Positions 10,847 to 56,776 of a DNA stretch of 64,000 bases are shown here, in pieces. The DNA lies in contig CAVJSS010000003.1 of NCBI GenBank assembly GCA_963652335.1, positions 786 to 64,785 on the forward strand, in the 5' to 3' direction. How positions within the stretch are numbered: the first letter of the stretch is position 1; the number at the start of each line of letters is the position of its first letter. Made by a program: the position numbers and the translations under genes. The notes beneath the pieces are model-generated. The model saw only the letters and a program-made list of their open reading frames with translations, made no database searches and was not told the origin of the DNA. This DNA is from an uncultured Eubacteriales bacterium. Lineage in GTDB: Bacteria > Bacillota_I > Bacilli_A > RFN20 > CAG-826.

Positions 10847-12393
10847 TGGATTTCTTTCACAAATTATTAAATTTCTTTCACCTTGACGAAGAAGGGTACG
10901 CCGAATTTTCGGCGCCCTTTTCTTTTTCTAAGATCCCCTCCATTTCTTCCTTTGGTTGCGTTAAGAAAGCCATAAAGCGCTTAGAGAAAGCCAAAGAAGG
11001 AAACGAGAACGTCTTAATCTATGGCGATTACGATTGCGATGGGGTGATGGCAGCCTCGATAATGAAAATAGCCTTGAAAGAATTCGGAATCGAGGCAAAA
11101 GCCTATCTCCCTTCAAGATATCTGGACGGATATGGGCTAATTAAAGAAAACGTCAAGAAAATCATCAAATCCTATTCTTTGATCATAACGGTCGACAATG
11201 GGGTTACGGCCAATGAGGCAATCGATGTCGCTTATGAGAATAACGTCGATGTCATCGTTCTCGATCACCATTCTTATGATAAGGAACCGGATCATGTCGT
11301 CTCTTTGATCCACCCGATGACAGTTGGCTTGTCATCCCCTTCTATCTCCGCCGGATTCCTCTCTTATCTTTTTTCCGTCTCGTTGCTTCAAAGACATGAT
11401 TCCTATTTGGAGACTTTGGGCGCGACTTCTTTGATATCGGATGCGATGGAGATAGTTTCCTATAACCGCAACGCGGTGGGCTTGGCTTTGAAGATAATGG
11501 AAGAAGATGGCAATATCGCCTTTTCTCGGCTTTCGAAGAACAATCGGCTGACCTTGGAATCCCTTTCGATGCAAATAATTCCGACCATCAATTCCATAGG
11601 CCGGATGAACCTAGGGAGCAAAATAAACCGTTTGATTAAATATTTCACCGATCCGAACGGAGATGATGCCTTTTTGATCGCCGACTGGATGTCGGACGTA
11701 AACAAGCAAAGGAAGGATCTTGTGAGCAAAACGGCTTCTTCCCTTGTTTTCGAGGATTCTTCCCCTTCCATCCTTTTTAAATCCAATCTGCCGGAAGGCA
11801 TCAACGGCCTTTTGGCCAACAAGATATTGGACAAAGCCAAAAAACCGGTTGGGGTCTATTCCCCTTCCGAAAGGACGAAAGGGGTTTTGGTTGGTTCTCT
11901 AAGAAGCAAAGAAGGCTGCCCATTGACCGATTTCATGAATGAGATGAAGCCTATTCTTCTAACCGGTGGCGGGCACGCTTATGCATCCGGTTTCTCTTTG
12001 AAGGAAGAAGATTTCAACACCTTCAAAGATTCTTTCCTAATCTATTGCCTTTCCAATCCATTCAAAGAAGAAAAGAAAGAAACCATCGAACTTTCTTTAG
12101 ATGAAATCAACCAAGACAATTACCTGATCCTCAAGTCTTTCGGACCTTTCGGGCAAGGCCATAAGGCCCCGTTGTTCTCTCTTAGGTTTGAGGCAGATAG
12201 GCTGTTTTTCTCTCCGGATGGGAAAAGACTTCAGACTTATATCGCCCCAAACGTTAGGATATTCTCCTTCAAATATCCAAAGGAAAGCGTCCCTTCAAGC
12301 GGGGAATTGATCCTTGTCTTTGAGATGAACGAGAACGAATTCAAAGGCAGGAAGACGATTTCGGCCGATGTAAGTGATATCATCGTCGCTTAA
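10846..12393 (+). CDS. recJ: DHH/DHHA1 single-stranded-DNA exonuclease RecJ-like
   Basis: DHH motifs (YGDYDCDGV, TVDNG, VLDHH) and DHHA1 GGGHAYASG. The TAATG overlaps the secDF stop. Synteny is secDF-recJ-relA. Confidence 0.85.
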   Translation: MDFFHKLLNFFHLDEEGYAEFSAPFSFSKIPSISSFGCVKKAIKRLEKAKEGNENVLIYGDYDCDGVMAASIMKIALKEFGIEAKAYLPSRYLDGYGLIKENVKKIIKSYSLIITVDNGVTANEAIDVAYENNVDVIVLDHHSYDKEPDHVVSLIHPMTVGLSSPSISAGFLSYLFSVSLLQRHDSYLETLGATSLISDAMEIVSYNRNAVGLALKIMEEDGNIAFSRLSKNNRLTLESLSMQIIPTINSIGRMNLGSKINRLIKYFTDPNGDDAFLIADWMSDVNKQRKDLVSKTASSLVFEDSSPSILFKSNLPEGINGLLANKILDKAKKPVGVYSPSERTKGVLVGSLRSKEGCPLTDFMNEMKPILLTGGGHAYASGFSLKEEDFNTFKDSFLIYCLSNPFKEEKKETIELSLDEINQDNYLILKSFGPFGQGHKAPLFSLRFEADRLFFSPDGKRLQTYIAPNVRIFSFKYPKESVPSSGELILVFEMNENEFKGRKTISADVSDIIVA

Positions 12394-41262: not shown

Positions 41263-43065
41263 CTAGTCGTTGTTTCCCTTTTTGATGTGGCGTTTATCCA
41301 ACGCTTTTTTATAGATTTCGGCTTGTTCGGCTTTGGATTTGCCTAGCAATTCCTTCTCTAACGTCGCTTTTTCGTATTTTTTGTCTTTTTCCGCTTTGAT
41401 GGTCCTAGCCAAAGCTTCGATATTCTCCAAAGAGAACGGCGGATAGCTGTTTTCGTCGGAGATCATCGTGGCCAATGAGCTTAGTTCGTCCGCGTTGTCG
41501 AATTCGCTGGATTCGATGTCGCTAAGAAGCAAGGATATCTCGATGTCGGCGTTCCTTTTGTTCTCGTATTCGATGACGAAGTTGGCGATGGTTTGATAGG
41601 TTTCGTTGTAGAAACTATCGATCGATGTCTTGAAGAATTCCACCGCCTCGCGGTTATGGAGCATGTAATAGAGCATCTGCTTCTCGGCGAAGTCCAAACG
41701 GCCTTTGTTTTCCCTTTTAAGCCGCCTGTAGCTCGTTTTTGGGGTTACGCAATATTCTTCTGCGTCTTCCCTATTCTCTGTCGAATTGGCCTCTCTCCTG
41801 ATCAATGAGGCCTCATATCCGGTTATCCTTGAAAGCTTGGCGATGTTGTTTTCCTTCTCAAGTCCTGGGGGGATGTTAGAAAGATAAGGGATGAAATACC
41901 TTAGGACCTTTTCCCTATCTTCTTTTGAAGATAATTGCTTGACGTTAAGGTAATAATTCAGCTGGAAGTCGAATGGATCGGTCAGATTGTTCATCATTTG
42001 GATCAAAACGTCTTTCCCTGATTCTTGGAGGATGTCGTCAGGATCCCTTAGATCATTCGGATTGAGGACGATCCTGAAAGGGATGTCTGCTTTGGATAGT
42101 TTTTGGATCATTTTCATCATCCCTGTTTGCCCGGCGGCGTCTCCATCGAGGCAAAGCCGTACTTCGGCACGGAGGAAACGGAGCATTTTGATATGTTCAT
42201 CGCTTAGATTGGTCCCCATTAAGGCCACGGCTGAGCGGATTCCGGCCTTAGATAGGGCGATGACGTCCATGAACCCCTCCAAAACGTAGATATAGCCATC
42301 GTGCCTGGCTATTTCTTTGGCGATGTCATAGTTATAGAGGACCTCGCTTTTATGGAAGATGCGGGTTTCGGGGGAATTGACGTATTTGCTGCTTCCGTCA
42401 TCCCTTATTCTGCGAGCCGAGAAGCCGACGACTTGGCCGTCTTTGTCTTTGAGTGGGAAGATGAGCCTTCCGGCGTTGGAATCGGCCGTGCCGTTGGCTT
42501 TGACCAAAGCGATCCCGATGTCTTCGATGGATTTCAGCGAATGGCCCTTGGCTTGAAGGTATTGGATCGTCTTTTCCCCATCAAGGAGAGAATAGCCGAT
42601 GCCAAAGGCATTGGCGGTAGTTTCATCGATGTTTCTTTTAAAAAGATATTCTTTTGCTTCTTGCCCCTCTTTGGTCGATAAGCCATAAAGGTAGAACAAT
42701 TGAAGGTCGTTGATGCATTTATAAAGGGGCACCAGATCGGCGTCCACTTTCTTTTCATGGCGTTCGCTTATCAATCTTGGATCGTCATAGCCGATGATCG
42801 AAGCCAATTTCCTTACGGCTTCGTCAAAGGAGATCTTTTCGTATTTTTGGACGAAGGTCAAAGCGTTCCCGCCGGCTCCGCATGAGAAGCATTTGTAAAT
42901 TTGCTTCTCTTTGGAGATGTTCAAGGATGGGTTTTTATCGTCGTGGAATGGACAGATAGCCAAATAAGAACGGCCTTTTTGAATGACTTGGATATAGGAG
43001 GAAATTACGCTTACGATGTCGCTGCTTTTAAGCAAATCATCGATCAAATCTCTTGAATATGGCAT
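41263..43065 (-). CDS. dnaG: DNA primase
   Basis: Zinc ribbon CPFHDDKNPSLNIS..FKCFSCG, and TOPRIM (VLEGFMDV, LCLDGDAAG); 600 aa; SD GGAGG. Confidence 0.96.
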   Translation of the reverse strand: MPYSRDLIDDLLKSSDIVSVISSYIQVIQKGRSYLAICPFHDDKNPSLNISKEKQIYKCFSCGAGGNALTFVQKYEKISFDEAVRKLASIIGYDDPRLISERHEKKVDADLVPLYKCINDLQLFYLYGLSTKEGQEAKEYLFKRNIDETTANAFGIGYSLLDGEKTIQYLQAKGHSLKSIEDIGIALVKANGTADSNAGRLIFPLKDKDGQVVGFSARRIRDDGSSKYVNSPETRIFHKSEVLYNYDIAKEIARHDGYIYVLEGFMDVIALSKAGIRSAVALMGTNLSDEHIKMLRFLRAEVRLCLDGDAAGQTGMMKMIQKLSKADIPFRIVLNPNDLRDPDDILQESGKDVLIQMMNNLTDPFDFQLNYYLNVKQLSSKEDREKVLRYFIPYLSNIPPGLEKENNIAKLSRITGYEASLIRREANSTENREDAEEYCVTPKTSYRRLKRENKGRLDFAEKQMLYYMLHNREAVEFFKTSIDSFYNETYQTIANFVIEYENKRNADIEISLLLSDIESSEFDNADELSSLATMISDENSYPPFSLENIEALARTIKAEKDKKYEKATLEKELLGKSKAEQAEIYKKALDKRHIKKGNND

Positions 43066-48343: not shown

Positions 48344-48996
48344 TTATTCTTCTTTTTCTTCTATTTTATGATGGGAAGAAACCTCGAAATGGTATTTGAC
48401 GATGCCTAAATCGATCTTGAAATAAGGGCCACCGAGGTTCTTTAAGATGACTCTGCCGTTTTTGAGTTCGAAAAAGAATTTTTGCTGGTTAAGGGCAGTT
48501 GGGGCCAAACCTGCGGCTATGACGCCCTTCATGAACCAATCGCATTCTTCATCGGCCTTATAAAGTCGGGAAATGTCTTTGCTTTTATGAGGGAAGCCAC
48601 CATTTTTACCATATCCCAAAGAAATGACGATCAAAAGTTTTTTCCTTTTTCAAAAGCGGCTTCCGTCTTTCCGTGCGTTAAGGCGACCCAACAGGTGTTA
48701 AGGCCTATTTCTTGGCACTTTAGGACCAGCTTTTCGCCATAATATCCGGCTTTTTCTTGATCCCTTTTATTTCCCACGATGCAGATGTAGTTGGCGACGT
48801 TTTCGAATTTGCCATAACGGGCCAAAATGGAAGAAAAGCATTTAGGCTCATCGAAAAAGACTTGGAAGGAGAGGCCGCTTTCAAAGCCGATTTCGTTGGC
48901 CAAGGATCTTATCTCTTCCTTCTTTTCTTCTTCGATTGGCTCTGATTTATATTGCCTGACGCTATGGCGTTCTTTCATCAATTCGATGATATCCAT
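48344..48996 (-). pseudogene. nitroreductase-family gene interrupted by a 1-nt frameshift in a homopolymer
   Basis: The two track ORFs (48631-49038 and 48344-48634) are the N- and C-halves of one nitroreductase (MDIIELMKERHSVRQY... / ...LIVISLGYGK...NQQKF). Adding one A to the - strand A6 run (+ strand T6, 48638-48643) gives the continuous ...AFEKGKKLLIVISLGYGK. Confidence 0.7.
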
Positions 48997-49049
48997 GATG
49001 TTTCCCTTTCTTTTGAAACATAAATAGTCAAAGACCAAAAATCATCTTG

Positions 49050-50563: not shown

Positions 50564-51514
50564 ATGGGCCAAAAACCGTTTCTGAGCGTCATAATCCCCG
50601 TTTATTCAGGGGAGAAATATTTCGAAAGATGCTTGTCTTCTTTGCTTAAGCAGGAATGCGATGAAGATTATGAGATCGTCCTTTCGATCAATCTGGATGC
50701 GGAAGAGGGATGCAAAAGATTGTGCGAAGAGGCATTGAAAAAGGACCCTCATTTCGTTTCGATAACGATGAAAGAAGGCAATCTAGCCAAGATGATATGC
50801 AGATTGGAGGGGGTTAGGTTCTCCAAAGGGGAATATGTCACCTTCGTTGACAATGACGATTATTATTCTTCTTCCAAAGCGATCGAGAATATCATCAAAG
50901 AAATAAAGAAACATAAGACGGATATCACCGTCTTTCCTTATTATCATTCGAAACACGATAAAGAAAGATTGGCCTTCGCCCAGAATTTCAAAGAGAAGGT
51001 CTTAAGCAAAGAAGAGGCCTTCGATAAATTGAACAAGGATTTTTCCATGCCCCATTTTCTTTGGAACAAGGCTTTCAAAAGGGAATTGTTCGATTCTCCT
51101 TTGATGGTCTTTTCTAAAAAAGAGGATATGTTCGAAGATTGCGTTTTGTCTTCTTCTTTGTTTTTGGCTGCGTCTAGCTTCTATCGTTCTTCTTATCCTT
51201 ATTATTGTTATCGGATCGATAATCCTAATGCAGATACAAGGATAAAAAGGATAGATAGGGCTTTTTATCGTTTATCCGTATATGCATCGGAAAGAGCGTA
51301 TTTGGAGAAATACCATCCTGTATATCTAAAGTATTGGAAGAAAGCGTACCACCGGCACGTTTCTTTCGTTATCTATGATTCCATGTGCGACATGAAACAT
51401 GGAAAGGGGCGGTTGCTCCATAATCTAAGGCAGTTAAATAAATTGCATAAGAAGAAGTGCGATTTAAAATGGTTGGATTGTTATGAGGTGGTAAAGAGGA
51501 CGGTTGAGGGGTAG
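50564..51514 (+). CDS. family 2 glycosyltransferase
   Basis: FLSVIIPVYSGEKYFERCLSSLLKQ and the DNDD motif; 316 aa. Confidence 0.85.
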   Translation: MGQKPFLSVIIPVYSGEKYFERCLSSLLKQECDEDYEIVLSINLDAEEGCKRLCEEALKKDPHFVSITMKEGNLAKMICRLEGVRFSKGEYVTFVDNDDYYSSSKAIENIIKEIKKHKTDITVFPYYHSKHDKERLAFAQNFKEKVLSKEEAFDKLNKDFSMPHFLWNKAFKRELFDSPLMVFSKKEDMFEDCVLSSSLFLAASSFYRSSYPYYCYRIDNPNADTRIKRIDRAFYRLSVYASERAYLEKYHPVYLKYWKKAYHRHVSFVIYDSMCDMKHGKGRLLHNLRQLNKLHKKKCDLKWLDCYEVVKRTVEG

Positions 51515-51602: not shown

Positions 51603-54281
51603 TTAAACTGCTGTTCGAATATAATTAAAGCTTATTTCACACCCAAAGACAGTAAACGATAGAGTTCCGGATTGTGTTTCGTTCGCAATACTCTTGAAAA
51701 TAACAGTTTGAACAACGTACTTGACATTGCTAACCTTCTTATAAATCGCTTTTGCAGAATCGAATTTTAATTCAGATCCCTTCTCCAAATTGATGCTATA
51801 GTTATCTCTAATCAGCGGCACCTTATTTTTATCGGCCATTTGAACGTCGTAATAAATTACTATGCTCACAGTCGTAGCAGGGTAACTGCCGGATTTTTCA
51901 ACCTTTATTGTGTTACTGCTTTTATCAAAAACAACAAAATTGTTTGTAGTAACGGACACACTGAGGGAGTGCACAATTATTGTGTTATCGAGATATGCGA
52001 CTGCAATAATTTCTTCATTCTTCTTAAATCTGGCTTTTACTTTAACTGTTCCGGCTACACTTCCCGGAGTTACAACCCCTTTTTCGCTAATGAAAGCAAC
52101 TACTTCTCCTTCACTAGGATCTTGATACTTCAATTCGTATTCAGAAGCGCTAATTTTTTCTTGAATAGCCTTTTGACTATCGACGATTTCAAAAGACACC
52201 GTATAGTCAGTGACGGATTCACCATTTCTCTTTAATGATGGCGTAATCTTTGCCTCGGAATAAACGTCAGTATCAACATAGGCTATCTCATACGTATCGG
52301 CCGTGATACTAGCTTCATAATCTGTTTGTATTTTGCTCGCAACGAAAGTGCCACTTGTTTCAACGTCCCCAGCTGTCCCATCGCTTTTAGTGAAATTCGC
52401 CTCGCAAGTAACGGTGTATTCAATGTCTTCAACTCCATCATTCGCCGGAGTAGTCAGCGTTATAGTTTGCCCTGTGGTTGAACTCAACGATGCGCCATCA
52501 GGACAAGACCAACTATAAGTAATGCTGTCATCGGAACTTAAAGATGGTGAAGGGAAACAGTTGGCCGTTATTGTGAAAGTCCCTTGTTCTCCTGGATCGG
52601 ATTGGGTATCTCCTTCTTTAACCGAAAGGGAGACTTCGTAAATGTCGGTGACCCAGTGCTTGCTGGACGAAACATAGTATCCGACATGCATTGGCGAAAC
52701 CATATTCGAGTCACTTCCTACATATCCGCCTGATGTCATAGTAAAGCTATAAAAACTGCTTTTGTCAGCACTAACTTCGTACGCCGTTACAAATTTTTTT
52801 TCAAATGTTAACGTCGCAGTCGCATCGCTGGTGTTGGTACTAACGAAACCGCCGAATTCTGTTACTGACAGCGATCCATTCACTATCAAAATTCCATCAG
52901 AATTCATCTTTTCATAAGCGATGGACCCATCTTCTCCGTTTATGTCTGCAGCCTCTCCAGTTCCTGAATTATATTTGCTTTGATCATATTTGGCGTAATT
53001 GACCAATCCTGGGCAAGAGAAAGAAACCGATTCGCCAATGACAAGACGTGCGCCAGGCAAAATTTTTATGCTTTGCTCCGCTGAAGCGACTTTGGCTTCC
53101 TTGCCGTTTTCAGATTTGTTCAATTGCACATCGTAGTAACAAGATATTGGAAAATAACACGATGTGGTTGTTATCGAAAGACCTACAACTGTAAGCGATA
53201 ATGAATTGACATTGAAAGAGCCGTAAAAATTCAGATAATTTTTAGGGATTACGCCATTGGTCAAATCGCTTGTTCCATTATTGGCTTCAAACGTAAAAAA
53301 CGAGGTAACCGAAAAATTGTCCTGAGGGTCAATCAATCCGCCCTCGCCAATAATTGAGACTTCGCAACGATTGGACTGATTTGGCGTGTTTGTGTGAAGG
53401 TCCGGGATTCCAGTAAACGTAGCGGATCCTTCATATTTGGTCAAAGTATTGACGAAGGATGGAAAATAAAAACGATTAAATGGCGAACCGGTAAAACCAT
53501 TCACTTTATATGTGGTGACACTATCAGTATACAATTTAGAAAAAGCCGTGCCTCCACGATGTTCCACCACAACGAATGGGGCGTATGTCGTTGAACCAGC
53601 CGCATTGATGATATGAGGATCGGCGGTTTCTTTCGTATCTTCGCCTACAACATACCCGAAATTGACGAATTTGCCATTGTTTTGGATTTTAGCGCCGGAG
53701 GATAAAACCATCTTGGCGCATGTGGTTACGAAGCCGGCGACATTGCCGCCGCCTGTTCCGTTTTGGATTCCGCCGATAAGCAAAGTGCCGTTATTCGTGA
53801 TCGTAACGTTTTTATCCACCGTTACCGTCGAAGTGACATTGGAGCAATTGTTATAGACGTTAGCTAATTTATTTTGAGTGGCAATGCTATCGTAAGCCAT
53901 CGTGCTTTCCATCGTGCCGTCTGCTATGGTTCTATACAAAACGCCGCTTTCGGAAACGGATGAATAAGGAAGTATCAATGTGTCTTCTTTGCTTATCGTG
54001 CAGTCTTTGGCTATCGTTGGATTCGTGCCTGGAATGACGTAAATGACGTCTGCTGTCGTTTTATTTGAATTGGCTGTATCCAAAGCCTTTTCGATGCTGG
54101 TGTAATAAATATCCGTTGTTTCGTTATAGCAGACAACTTTATTGGCTATGGAAGAGATGCCTATGCTAATGCCTTTCGTGTTGTTGTCGGTTAGATAGGA
54201 TCCTACCCCTATAGTGAAAGTAGTGGCAATAACGCCAAATCCGGCCAAAAGGATTTTCGATAGCCTTCTATTATGCTTCAT
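51603..54281 (-). CDS. large uncharacterised surface protein, N-terminal signal-anchor, Gly/Asn/Thr-rich beta-rich region plus Ig-like C-terminal modules
   Basis: 892 aa. N-terminus MKHNRRLSKILLAGFGVIATTFTIGVGS (one TM helix, no lipobox Cys). Repetitive beta-strand-like segments (NGTLLIGGIQNGTGGGNVAGF). No LPXTG or C-terminal TM helix. SD AAGGAAA. The start overlaps the upstream gene by 11 nt. Confidence 0.8.
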   Translation of the reverse strand: MKHNRRLSKILLAGFGVIATTFTIGVGSYLTDNNTKGISIGISSIANKVVCYNETTDIYYTSIEKALDTANSNKTTADVIYVIPGTNPTIAKDCTISKEDTLILPYSSVSESGVLYRTIADGTMESTMAYDSIATQNKLANVYNNCSNVTSTVTVDKNVTITNNGTLLIGGIQNGTGGGNVAGFVTTCAKMVLSSGAKIQNNGKFVNFGYVVGEDTKETADPHIINAAGSTTYAPFVVVEHRGGTAFSKLYTDSVTTYKVNGFTGSPFNRFYFPSFVNTLTKYEGSATFTGIPDLHTNTPNQSNRCEVSIIGEGGLIDPQDNFSVTSFFTFEANNGTSDLTNGVIPKNYLNFYGSFNVNSLSLTVVGLSITTTSCYFPISCYYDVQLNKSENGKEAKVASAEQSIKILPGARLVIGESVSFSCPGLVNYAKYDQSKYNSGTGEAADINGEDGSIAYEKMNSDGILIVNGSLSVTEFGGFVSTNTSDATATLTFEKKFVTAYEVSADKSSFYSFTMTSGGYVGSDSNMVSPMHVGYYVSSSKHWVTDIYEVSLSVKEGDTQSDPGEQGTFTITANCFPSPSLSSDDSITYSWSCPDGASLSSTTGQTITLTTPANDGVEDIEYTVTCEANFTKSDGTAGDVETSGTFVASKIQTDYEASITADTYEIAYVDTDVYSEAKITPSLKRNGESVTDYTVSFEIVDSQKAIQEKISASEYELKYQDPSEGEVVAFISEKGVVTPGSVAGTVKVKARFKKNEEIIAVAYLDNTIIVHSLSVSVTTNNFVVFDKSSNTIKVEKSGSYPATTVSIVIYYDVQMADKNKVPLIRDNYSINLEKGSELKFDSAKAIYKKVSNVKYVVQTVIFKSIANETQSGTLSFTVFGCEISFNYIRTAV

Positions 54282-54899
54282 TGCTTGTTTCCTTTGTTGG
54301 CCTTATTCCTTCGACGTTGAAGGAAACGCTTAGATCCTTATCGGCGAAAGTTCCGATGCCAACGTCATCAACTTTGGTCTTTATGGAATATGCCAGTCCC
54401 AATTTGGTTTCCGATTCAGTGGGATCTATCGTCAAAGACAAGGTATTTTGCTTGGAATTTTCGGAAGCGACGGTTCCTATCGTGCAGCCTTTGATATTCG
54501 TGATCGATAATGAATCTATATACTGAAGGAAACCGGCATCGCTTGGAGTCAATGTCGTTTTCATCGTGAATACGTTATCCGAATCAAGATAGGAAAATGA
54601 CGAAAGATATTCGTTGTTGATGGTAAGCGACACGGATATCAAAGGATCGCTGTCAACGATCCCTTCTTTTCCAAGTTTGAATGTTTTTATGGATACTTCT
54701 TCGAAAATATCGACCTTTTTTATTCCGGCGGCGTTGATTGCCACTTGATTTGAAAAGGAAGGCGAATTGATCACTATCCAAGAAGCGAAGCCGACGCTAG
54801 CTAGCGATATGGCACCTAAAAGTAAAGTCCCCCCCCAATTTTGATCACTTTGGTCGTTCTGCTATCGCTATTGCCGTTATGCAACTTCTTTTCTTTCAT
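54271..54899 (-). CDS. small anchored surface protein gene split by G8 tract (N-terminal 27-codon ORF out of frame with 185-codon body)
   Basis: From ATG 54899 the frame reads MKEKKLHNGNSDSRTTKVIKIGGG and then hits TAG after the G8 run. The body frame reads TLLLGAISLASVGFASWIVINSPSFSNQ... to the stop at 54271. G9 or G6 would give one protein of about 209 aa with an N-terminal TM anchor. The track ORF (54271-54774) starts at an internal GTG. Confidence 0.65.
54829..54836 (-). repeat. poly-G(8) homopolymer inside coding sequence
   Basis: The + strand has CCCCCCCC at 54829-54836. It is the only G/C run of 7 or more that I noticed in the 64 kb. Confidence 0.9.
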
Positions 54900-55186
54900 G
54901 CACGTTTAGTATAACGCCGCAACAGGTTGTTACAATGTTTTTTGAATTGGCCGTTTTCGCTAAGGGAAAGAAAACAAGCGTTTTTTATCCTGGCGGTTAT
55001 CTCCTTTTGAGTGACTAATTTATGAATATGTCTGAGGCATATCGATTCGTTTGTCCCAAAATGAGAAAACGAGCGCATTATCTCGGCATCGACGGACGTG
55101 GCTGTTTTGATTTTGCAATAGGCATCATTTGCTAGGTCCTTAACGATGCTTCTAATGCCTGTTGGCGTGCCAAAATCATGAATCAA
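54896..55186 (-). CDS. hypothetical protein, possible sigma-70 region-4-like HTH; possibly a 5'-truncated remnant
   Basis: Its stop overlaps the next gene's ATG (ATGA at 54896-54899). The segment ESICLRHIHKLVTQKEITARIKNACFLSLSENGQFKKHCNNLL loosely resembles sigma region 4. There is only a TTG start, no clear SD, and the frame closes 6 codons upstream. Confidence 0.35.
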   Translation of the reverse strand: MIHDFGTPTGIRSIVKDLANDAYCKIKTATSVDAEIMRSFSHFGTNESICLRHIHKLVTQKEITARIKNACFLSLSENGQFKKHCNNLLRRYTKRA

Positions 55187-55286
55187 AGGAACATTTTTTC
55201 CACTTTAATCGGCAAATCCAAGAATTGGTTGAGCAACGCTAACGTTGATGGCTTGCACTCGGATTCGTGCTTAGAATCATACGGAT

Positions 55287-55388
55287 ACTTTTCGTATTAT
55301 GCATGTTTTATACATTTATTACTTGTCGTATTATGCATGTTTTTTAACATTTTTACTTTTAGTATTATGTATTTTCCTATACAATCCA
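55287..55388 (+). repeat. three tandem copies of a 34-bp unit
   Basis: Units: ACTTTTCGTATTATGCATGTTTTATACATTTATT / ACTTGTCGTATTATGCATGTTTTTTAACATTTTT / ACTTTTAGTATTATGTATTTTCCTATACAATCCA. Each carries TATTAT (+ strand); units 1-2 also carry CATAAT (- strand) as -10-like hexamers. Confidence 0.85.
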
Positions 55389-55411
55389 TTTATGCAGGAG
55401 AGGGCTTTCGA

Positions 55412-56776
55412 ATGTTGGAATTAAAAAGAAAAATTTATGGCTCATTGTTAAATTGGAAAGAAAATTTCAGCGATGATTCCGCATTGCTGATCGAAGGGGC
55501 AAGGCGTATAGGAAAATCAACGATCGTAGAAAAATTCGCAAAAGAAAATTATGAATCATATGTCATTATCGACTGGGCTATCGCAAGCCAAAGGATGAAA
55601 AACAATTTCAACGACAATCTGAATGATTTGGATCTGTTTTTCCAAAATATCTCATTGGAATATAACGTTGAATTGCATAAAGGCAAAACCCTGATCGTCT
55701 TTGATGAGGTACAGAAATTTCCCAAAGCCAGAGAGGCTATCAAATATTTGGTCAAAGACGGAAGATATAGCTATATTGAAACCGGCTCTTTGATTTCCAT
55801 TAAGGAAAATGTCGAAAATATAGTAATACCATCCGAAGAGATGAAAATAAAAATGCATCCATTGGACTTCGAGGAGTTTTTAATGGCCGCAAATGAGGAA
55901 ATCCTGCTTGAACGCATAAAGAAATGCGCTTCAGAAAAAGTGCCTTTGAATGATTTTTCGCATAAAAAAGCGATGAGAAGATTCAAAGAATATCTTCTTG
56001 TCGGCGGCATGCCGCAGAGCATCGTTGCTTATTTTGAAAATAATGGAGATTTCAGCAAGGCCGACATAGAAAAAAGGAAAATACTCGATCTATATCGAGA
56101 TGACATCAACAAAGCCCAAAAAAAATACAATTCCAAAGTCTCTGCCTTGTTTGAAAACATACCCGGTTATTTATCGAAGCACGATAAGAAAGTCATATTA
56201 TCGAAGATTGATGATAATCCTAGATTTTCCAAATATGATGGCTCATTATTTTGGCTATCCGATTCCATGATTTGCAATTTATGTTATAAATGCACCGATC
56301 CAAACGTAGGTTTCGCTCTGAATAAAGATGATTCTTCCGTAAAATGCTATATGGGAGACACAGGACTATTGGTAAGCCTCGCGTTCTCAGAAAACGAAAT
56401 CGTATCCAACAAATTGTATAAGTCGATCATCAATGGCAAGTTGTCTTTGAATGAAGGCATGCTATACGAAAACGCTATTGCGCAAATGATCGCATCGACA
56501 AATAGAAAATTATATTTTTACTCGCATTATGATTATGATGCGAAGAAAAACGATATAGAAATCGACTTTATGATTTCGAATGATTCGAAAACCAATCTGA
56601 AAGTCTATCCGATTGAGGTGAAATCAAGCAAAAACTACACAACCGTATCGTATGACAAATTCAAAAAACGATTTGGAAAAAGAATCGCTGAATCTTATAT
56701 CGTTCATCCAAAACAATTTTCAAAAGACGAATCCGGATATAAAGTTCCGCCATATATGTTTCCTTTTATGATATAG
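55412..56776 (+). CDS. AAA-family ATPase with C-terminal DUF4143-like domain
   Basis: Start at 55412 (MLELKRKIYGSLLNWKENFSDDSALLIEGARRIGKSTIV, Walker A) after GGAGAGGG. Walker B is LIVFDEVQ. The upstream 78 codons of the track ORF cover the tandem repeats and are rejected. Confidence 0.85.
   Translation: MLELKRKIYGSLLNWKENFSDDSALLIEGARRIGKSTIVEKFAKENYESYVIIDWAIASQRMKNNFNDNLNDLDLFFQNISLEYNVELHKGKTLIVFDEVQKFPKAREAIKYLVKDGRYSYIETGSLISIKENVENIVIPSEEMKIKMHPLDFEEFLMAANEEILLERIKKCASEKVPLNDFSHKKAMRRFKEYLLVGGMPQSIVAYFENNGDFSKADIEKRKILDLYRDDINKAQKKYNSKVSALFENIPGYLSKHDKKVILSKIDDNPRFSKYDGSLFWLSDSMICNLCYKCTDPNVGFALNKDDSSVKCYMGDTGLLVSLAFSENEIVSNKLYKSIINGKLSLNEGMLYENAIAQMIASTNRKLYFYSHYDYDAKKNDIEIDFMISNDSKTNLKVYPIEVKSSKNYTTVSYDKFKKRFGKRIAESYIVHPKQFSKDESGYKVPPYMFPFMI

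Follow-up and report, generated by a model that had tools for sequence, protein, structure and literature searches.

We analysed a 64,000-nucleotide stretch of DNA (the window; positions 786 to 64,785 of contig CAVJSS010000003.1, assembly GCA_963652335.1) from an uncultured Eubacteriales bacterium. A small gene on its minus strand is split by a run of eight G, and our results make it quite probable that this G8 tract is a real hypermutable homopolymer that turns the gene ON and OFF, in other words a contingency locus. The best reading of the comparative data is slipped-strand phase variation of a two-gene cassette, predicted to encode surface proteins, in uncultured gut Bacilli. A sequence-only reading of the window had already proposed a slippage switch in a surface-protein gene, and the tract lengths of 7 to 10 that we find in related loci support it.

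The tract and its reading frames

The small cassette gene lies at 54271..54899 on the minus strand, with its start codon ATG at 54899–54897. It is followed on the same strand by the large cassette gene (54281–51603), which encodes 892 amino acids. The tract occupies 54836–54829, corresponds to codons 22–24 of the small gene and encodes Gly-Gly-Gly. As assembled, with G8, the gene is out of frame: translation yields MKEKKLHNGNSDSRTTKVIKIGGGLYF and ends after 27 codons at a premature TAG (54818–54816), giving a 27-amino-acid product. This TAG sits four codons past the GGA that closes the tract, and not five codons past the tract as first read; otherwise the coordinates and frames given by the sequence-only reading were borne out. 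Past the tract the other frame reads TLLLGAISLASVGFASWIVINSPSF... up to TAA 54273–54271. The restored frame encodes 209 amino acids with G9 and 208 with G6, continuing ...IGGGTLLLGAISLASVGFASWIVINSPSF..., in agreement with the earlier expectation that one additional G, or two fewer, would produce a protein of about 209 amino acids. For the window the in-frame tract lengths are 6, 9 and 12.

The downstream frame contains no ATG, GTG or TTG between the stop codon at 54864–54862 and a GTG at 54774, the internal start that had been noted as its only one. Because no start codon precedes this GTG, a product that includes the hydrophobic helix could not be made in the OFF phase. The absence of a start codon between the tract and GTG 54774 in the window also rules out that the G run serves as a Shine-Dalgarno element for an internal start.

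The 209-amino-acid protein consists of a Lys/Arg-rich N-region, the Gly3, a 20-residue hydrophobic helix ending in VGFASW, and a predicted beta-sandwich ectodomain of about 150 amino acids. The charged N-terminus of the earlier reading is thus there, the hydrophobic helix corresponds to its single transmembrane anchor, and the tract falls exactly where the charged N-region gives way to this helix. All defining features of a homopolymer contingency locus that sequence data can test are found here, among them an uninterrupted run of at least about seven within a coding sequence, and a change of ±1 that toggles between a full-length and a truncated product.

Tract length and selection in related loci

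A first search with the small protein returned one non-self homologue (P0002, 50% identity). It is encoded on contig L001, which has the same two-gene arrangement and a G7 at the matching codon, likewise out of frame. For the large protein, we retrieved the contigs that encode its closest homologues, and in all of them a small gene with a poly-G was present at the matching place. Counting three samples of one locus (L022–24) once, the tract-bearing set comprises 11 loci from different assemblies. Each has an uninterrupted run of G7 to G10 at the same codon position, which puts the gene out of frame in ten of the 11 and in frame in the remaining one.

Four of these loci would be in frame with 6 or 9 G and are OFF: the window and L003 with G8, and L001 and L002 with G7. 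L004 has G10 where 9 or 12 would be in frame, and is OFF. L005 has G9 where 9 is in frame; this is the locus that is ON, and here the gene caller reported a protein of 218 amino acids. L006 (G9; in frame with 7 or 10) and L007 (G9; in frame with 8 or 11) are OFF. The same is true of the more distant members, L022–24 (G8; in frame with 7 or 10), L026 (G9; in frame with 8 or 11) and the second of two tandem cassettes in L025 (G10; in frame with 9). The sequence-only reading had suggested comparing tract length in relatives and had asked whether orthologues lack a homopolymer at this position. They have it, at the orthologous site, and its length varies even between near-identical strains.

Two such comparisons are available. 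L004 and L005, which stem from two samples, are 99.7% identical over 12.9 kb and differ in the tract, G10 versus G9. The small genes of the window and L002 have a synonymous divergence (dS) of 0.007, and their tracts, G8 and G7, are one G apart. Tract-length polymorphism among closely related strains is therefore seen in both pairs. L004 and L005 differ in a few other places as well. An intergenic poly-T is T14 in L004 (773–786) and T20 in L005, where it lies beside a scaffold gap; a 1-nucleotide indel (GGGAAAGAAATT/GGGAAAAAATT; L004 position 363) is found at the start of an HTH_23 gene; and ten single-nucleotide polymorphisms are clustered within 290 nucleotides upstream of the small gene.

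In four copies the G run is interrupted or recoded, and in all four the gene is in frame: L008 (GGGTGGGGG), L009 (GGGGGAGGG), L028 (GGAGGGGGG) and the first cassette of L025 (GGAGGAGGC). L008 and L009 encode the same large protein. The length that would be in frame varies by lineage (8, 9 or 10) while the G run stays, and therefore the repeat is maintained in its own right, beyond any role as a Gly3 linker. At the protein level Gly3 is tolerated too, or even wanted, as the GGAGGAGGC allele shows.

The two cassettes of L025 (8001–12262) are tandem paralogues within one metagenome-assembled genome (MAG) and have duplicated promoter regions. The first carries its Gly3 as the non-slippery, in-frame GGAGGAGGC; the second has the out-of-frame G10 at 11710–11719, and is followed by an Lgt-family gene and then by a gene for a 1040-amino-acid protein. 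L008 (1–12577) comes from a MAG labelled Erysipelotrichaceae; there, the cassette is the last element in a row of about nine genes that share one strand and have no Pfam matches. Two large serine recombinase genes come a few genes after it in the downstream direction, and they point to a mobile element as the probable carrier of this cassette copy.

The gene that the tract interrupts is not decaying. Between L004 and L006, both of which are OFF, the restored frame of 218 codons has a ratio of nonsynonymous to synonymous substitution rates (dN/dS) of 0.10 at a dS of 0.29, which shows purifying selection even between two OFF copies. None of the OFF copies has a second lesion. Each retains its start codon, its charged N-region and an intact downstream frame of about 185 codons, and both frame segments are open in all loci.

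Codon usage does not account for the tract. GGG makes up 24% of the Gly codons in the window's genes, and three consecutive GGG are therefore expected at about 1.4%. The tract is conserved at the orthologous site beyond this expectation, in a gene under purifying selection, and G8 to G10 runs are kept even in loci of 28–33% G+C. The window as a whole strongly avoids G/C runs. It contains 33 of length 5, one of length 6 (a G6 at 41867–41872), none of length 7 and one of length 8, which agrees with the earlier remark that the G8 is its only long G/C run. Runs of at least 6 (two observed versus 24.6 expected under a first-order Markov model) are depleted 12-fold, and the G8 is for this reason an outlier against its own background. 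In the 163 kb of fetched loci, all G/C runs of at least 7 are this tract.

Alternative explanations

Several observations weigh against a switch, or at least limit what can be claimed for it. A lone G8 run is not improbable: 2.4 such runs per window arise under a dinucleotide shuffle, and by itself the run is not significant. Ten OFF loci out of 11 are compatible with the one-third chance expectation (P about 0.08–0.2). Part of this OFF-heavy sample was ascertained through truncated proteins, and the excess of OFF states could reflect a bias common to the assemblies. The window holds one other homopolymer frameshift, in an A6 of a nitroreductase gene. Finally, the large gene's own Shine-Dalgarno sequence leaves the phenotypic reach of the switch uncertain.

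The nitroreductase frameshift bears on the explanation that the sequence-only reading had itself raised, namely that the true tract is always in frame and that miscalled homopolymers mimic frameshifts in sequencing or assembly. The frameshift is real: the TM1586-type nitroreductase gene (48344–49038, minus strand) is split by a −1 frameshift in the A6 at 48643–48638, and with A7 the sequence ...EKGKKLLIVISLGYG... is restored, as in Lachnospiraceae homologues (64–69% identity). Poly-G is moreover a weak spot of several sequencing chemistries. The rest of the window speaks against the artefact. It is an ordinary bacterial chromosome, with an Obg 92–93% identical to that of several MAGs, in which ValRS, Obg, RuvB, RecJ, RelA/SpoT, HisRS, AspRS, transketolase, ExoVII and DinB match Pfam end to end, as do a ParC/ParE-type topoisomerase, DnaG, sigma-70, Era, RecO, EF-P, IspG, IspH and DnaJ. 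About 48 other open reading frames (ORFs) checked against Pfam are intact despite A/T runs of 6 (n=90), 7 (n=13) and 8 (n=3), and the nitroreductase is the only other broken gene. With two frameshifts in about 50 genes and more than 100 intact A/T runs, the assembly does not look prone to homopolymer errors. The nitroreductase looks like an acquired accessory gene, given that its nearest homologues are in Lachnospiraceae and not in the sister MAGs, and it may be either a pseudogene or a single consensus error. Out-of-frame lengths recur across 10 or more independent assemblies, which different assemblers produced (contigs with Spades_, NODE_ and k141_ names, and Logan contigs), they deviate in both directions by up to 2 nucleotides, and interrupted tracts are in frame every time. 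Thus, the concern about assembly errors was justified as far as the second frameshift goes, and we consider it improbable as an explanation of the tract.

Still less likely, in our view, are a fixed pseudogene and a recoding signal. If the small gene had been lost for good in this lineage, the G run would be the mere site of a lesion; the preponderance of out-of-frame copies and the accessory nature of the cassette, which is found in differing genomic contexts, would fit such a loss. The low dN/dS between two OFF copies, the lack of second lesions and the ON state of the near-clonal partner L005 are hard to reconcile with it. Recoding, by which RNA-polymerase slippage or ribosomal frameshifting on a run of fixed length would make the tract an expression attenuator instead of a heritable switch, has an equally slim chance of being correct. 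Transcripts can slip at long homopolymers, and by sequence logic a −1 ribosomal slip on G_GGG_GGG in the G8 would yield the exact G9 product. A programmed ribosomal frameshift site would, however, be expected to have a fixed direction and a downstream structure, and this tract has neither: the shift needed is −1 in the window and L003 and +1 or −2 in L001, L002, L004, L007, L022 and L026, and the 89 nucleotides past the tract fold at −17.9 kcal/mol (z = −0.34), with no stimulatory structure. It is also the length of the DNA itself that differs between near-identical strains. Transcript or ribosome slippage may nevertheless add some leakiness on top of a DNA switch.

Phase variation by slippage of the DNA thus remains our preferred reading. 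Slipped-strand mispairing at replication would add G's to the tract or remove them; the small gene would be in frame at G6, G9 or G12 and would otherwise take one of two out-of-frame states. That slippage occurs at replication, and that it is reversible, we infer from the metagenome assemblies. In frame, translation from the 5′-proximal AUG would produce a protein that is sent to or through the membrane by its charged N-region and hydrophobic helix, with the beta-sandwich exposed. Out of frame, as assembled here, translation would stop after 27 codons, the helix would have no alternative start and the small protein would be absent. The 892-amino-acid protein would then probably be reduced, through lost translational coupling or polarity, or be left without its partner.

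The cassette, its expression and its family

How far the switch reaches depends on how the two genes are expressed. The sequence-only reading had placed the small gene in an operon, coupled by an ATGA overlap to an ORF upstream and by 11 nucleotides to the large gene downstream. The second overlap is there: the large gene starts at 54281, the small gene ends at 54271, and AAGGAA precedes the start. Across loci the spacing ranges from this 11-nucleotide overlap to a 13-nucleotide gap, and in every locus the large gene has a Shine-Dalgarno-like sequence of its own. Beyond it lies a convergent family-2 glycosyltransferase gene (50564–51514). The "whole downstream operon" that the tract was thought to gate is hence a single gene with its own ribosome-binding signal, and because of this signal the gating of the 892-amino-acid protein is possible but only putative.

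The upstream coupling did not hold up. The supposed upstream ORF (54896–55186, minus strand, TTG start, 96 amino acids) is in our judgement not a gene. It has no Pfam match, it overlaps the start of a divergent AAA_14/DUF4143 gene (55178–56776, plus strand), its frame is broken by a 1-nucleotide indel relative to the otherwise 95%-identical L002, and it carries the promoter-like site of the small gene. We regard the stretch as a divergent promoter or intergenic region. The promoter-like site, TTGTAA-16 nt-TATACT at 54935–54908 on the minus strand (a consensus match only), has a −10 box that ends 8 nucleotides before the ATG. At most orthologous loci a −10-like box, often TGnTAnnnT, is found 6–9 nucleotides before the small-gene ATG, without a Shine-Dalgarno sequence. 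As the box is so close to the ATG, with no Shine-Dalgarno sequence in between, the small gene's mRNA is predicted to be leaderless or nearly so.

In three genomic contexts that otherwise differ, the cassette has an AAA_14/DUF4143 ATPase gene beside it or close by: in the window (55178–56776, plus strand), in L001 (6145–7555) and in L025 (2989–4257). This proximity could be due to chance or to a real association.

Neither cassette protein matches Pfam, NCBIfam or PHROGs. The ectodomain of the small protein is predicted to be an all-beta sandwich (AlphaFold2, AF2, pLDDT 86). A fold search with it turned up nothing beyond weak similarity to cohesin- or pilin-like beta-sandwiches (best E 2e-3, TM 0.33–0.45), and no fold family was assigned. 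The large protein is modelled with a conserved beta-helix region at about amino acids 50–500 and tandem Ig-like domains at about 510–890 (AF2 pLDDT 73), and a hydrophobic helix lies at its N-terminus. Its fold searches are dominated by generic tandem Ig-like domains, with matches to adhesin-type Ig arrays. It has 58 homologues, none of them named, and the exact 892-amino-acid protein had no match in the contig index. Calling these surface proteins, as the sequence-only reading did, is reasonable in view of the hydrophobic helices and the predicted beta-sandwich, beta-helix and Ig-like folds; no family assignment stands behind the label. An origin from a phage tail fibre or prophage was considered and dropped, as there was no PHROG match and no IMG/VR relative, and the BFVD matches are to generic Ig-like domains.

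A common N-terminal pattern is seen in the small proteins and in most homologues of the large one: basic residues come first, then about 18 residues of hydrophobic helix and finally [IV]G[FY]S[SN]W. It is present at window positions 54795–54778 (VGFASW) and at the N-termini of P0004–P0059 and P0061–P0251. The window's own large protein reads IGVGSYL at this segment. The GFSSW-type motif has no family model, a literature search for it gave nothing relevant, and it could be a signal for export or processing that is peculiar to this lineage. Neither window protein matches the type IV pilin N-terminal domain (TIGR02532/PF07963; G|FxxxE-type). Two distant homologues of the large protein, P0035 and P0041, do match TIGR02532 (28.5–28.6 bits versus a cut-off of 16.3); a related ectodomain can therefore be pilin-borne elsewhere, and the window cassette is not a member of that group.

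The large protein shows variation of a different kind. Between the window and L002, amino acids 1–700 are 92–100% identical (per block of 50 amino acids), whereas amino acids 701–892 are only 30–51% identical. The segment concerned is 51606–52181 of the window, and the adjacent small gene is 99% identical to that of L002. The drop in identity over the last 190 amino acids indicates that recombination exchanged the C-terminal tip domain, and this would add a second layer of variation.

When the wider family was first searched for with a two-sequence alignment, GTDB genomes and JGI metagenomes yielded no relatives. The exact DNA pattern around the tract was found in none of the GTDB genomes, its one match in JGI contigs (L027) is unrelated and due to chance, and further strains of the species were thus not recovered. 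A profile search of 1.8 billion representatives, by contrast, returned 296 clusters (50% identity) of the small-protein family. Of 147 family representatives that we classified, 53 have GG or GGG at the boundary of N-region and helix. Five of the 147 start at the tract (MGG..., MSGGG..., MRGG...) and several more inside the helix; such starts are the usual output of gene callers on OFF-phase copies. Some variants, GWGG, AWG and GIG among them, resemble tracts interrupted by point changes. Some family members (L018, L020 and L021) have no Gly motif at all. In L020, from a 23% G+C MAG labelled "Mollicutes bacterium", codon 3 of the small gene (about 2417–2440) is TGA (MN*KRNKK), where the related L021 has AGA; this could reflect a nonsense mutation or, alternatively, hint that TGA has been reassigned in the lineage of L020. 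The MAGs from which members of the small and large families come are labelled Erysipelotrichaceae, Mollicutes, Bacillales or Bacilli.

The mechanism itself is classical; what is new for it is the gene family and the uncultured bacteria that carry it. Phase variation by homopolymer slippage is textbook knowledge for a handful of cultured pathogens, and surface lipoprotein or adhesin genes of Mycoplasma are switched by homopolymers. To our knowledge, such slippage is hardly documented in uncultured gut commensals of the Gram-positive type, where invertible promoters draw most of the attention.

In Neisseria meningitidis, poly-G tracts are reported within the ORFs of the surface receptors hmbR and hpuAB, and in these and the wider Neisseria phasome the ON/OFF states vary among isolates (PMC3786947, PMC5084427, PMC5953494). 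As in hmbR and hpuAB, the G run studied here is within the reading frame, and changes in its length would switch translation ON or OFF. The Neisseria systems operate in cultured Gram-negative pathogens, their switching rates have been measured and their functions are known; ours is from uncultured gut Bacilli, has proteins of no described family, and its switching is deduced from metagenome assemblies only.

The phasomes of Campylobacter and Helicobacter (PhasomeIt; H. canadensis; sabA of H. pylori) have G/C tracts of about 8–10 near the 5′ end of surface and glycan genes (PMC6321876, PMC2823697, PMC2715451). The cassette resembles them in that its G tract is 5′-proximal, is conserved across species as a tract and is often OFF in genome sequences. 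It differs in number: those genomes have dozens of tracts, whereas here there is one in the 64-kb window and a sole site in 163 kb of related loci. Closer relatives offer the hypermutable hotspot in a flagellar gene of Paenibacillus (PMC9941203) and the homopolymer indel of Spy1336/R28 in S. pyogenes (PMC7098570). In these Mollicute and Firmicute examples, too, short-repeat indels toggle surface structures in related lineages. They are mostly poly-A/T or intergenic, while the tract described here is a coding poly-G that falls exactly where the N-region of a putative export signal meets its hydrophobic core, and it is conserved across a family of about 300 clusters.

One could go further and regard the cassette as an undescribed two-protein surface system of uncultured gut Bacilli with the tract as its control point. 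Both partners would carry the same N-terminal signal, and the large adhesin would depend on the small protein for its display or assembly. The switch would have been kept across the roughly 300 clusters, repeatedly locked ON by point interruptions and combined with swapping of the adhesin tip, resulting in layered antigenic or adhesive variation. We offer this only tentatively, as a scenario that is rather unlikely to be correct in full.

Our results also mean that a conserved contingency locus can be detected from metagenome assemblies alone, through tracts of length 7–10 at the same codon, ON/OFF differences between near-clonal strains and "locked" interrupted alleles. Annotation of MAGs under-reports these genes because gene callers systematically truncate or split them, and several database entries start at the tract. 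The conservation of the switch across the family at the boundary of the export signal, in an unannotated two-protein cassette, makes the system worth following up. An unannotated family of about 300 clusters, together with a partner family that resembles adhesins, is thereby flagged as likely variable surface structures of gut Bacilli, and both are candidates for interaction with the host, with phages or with the immune system.

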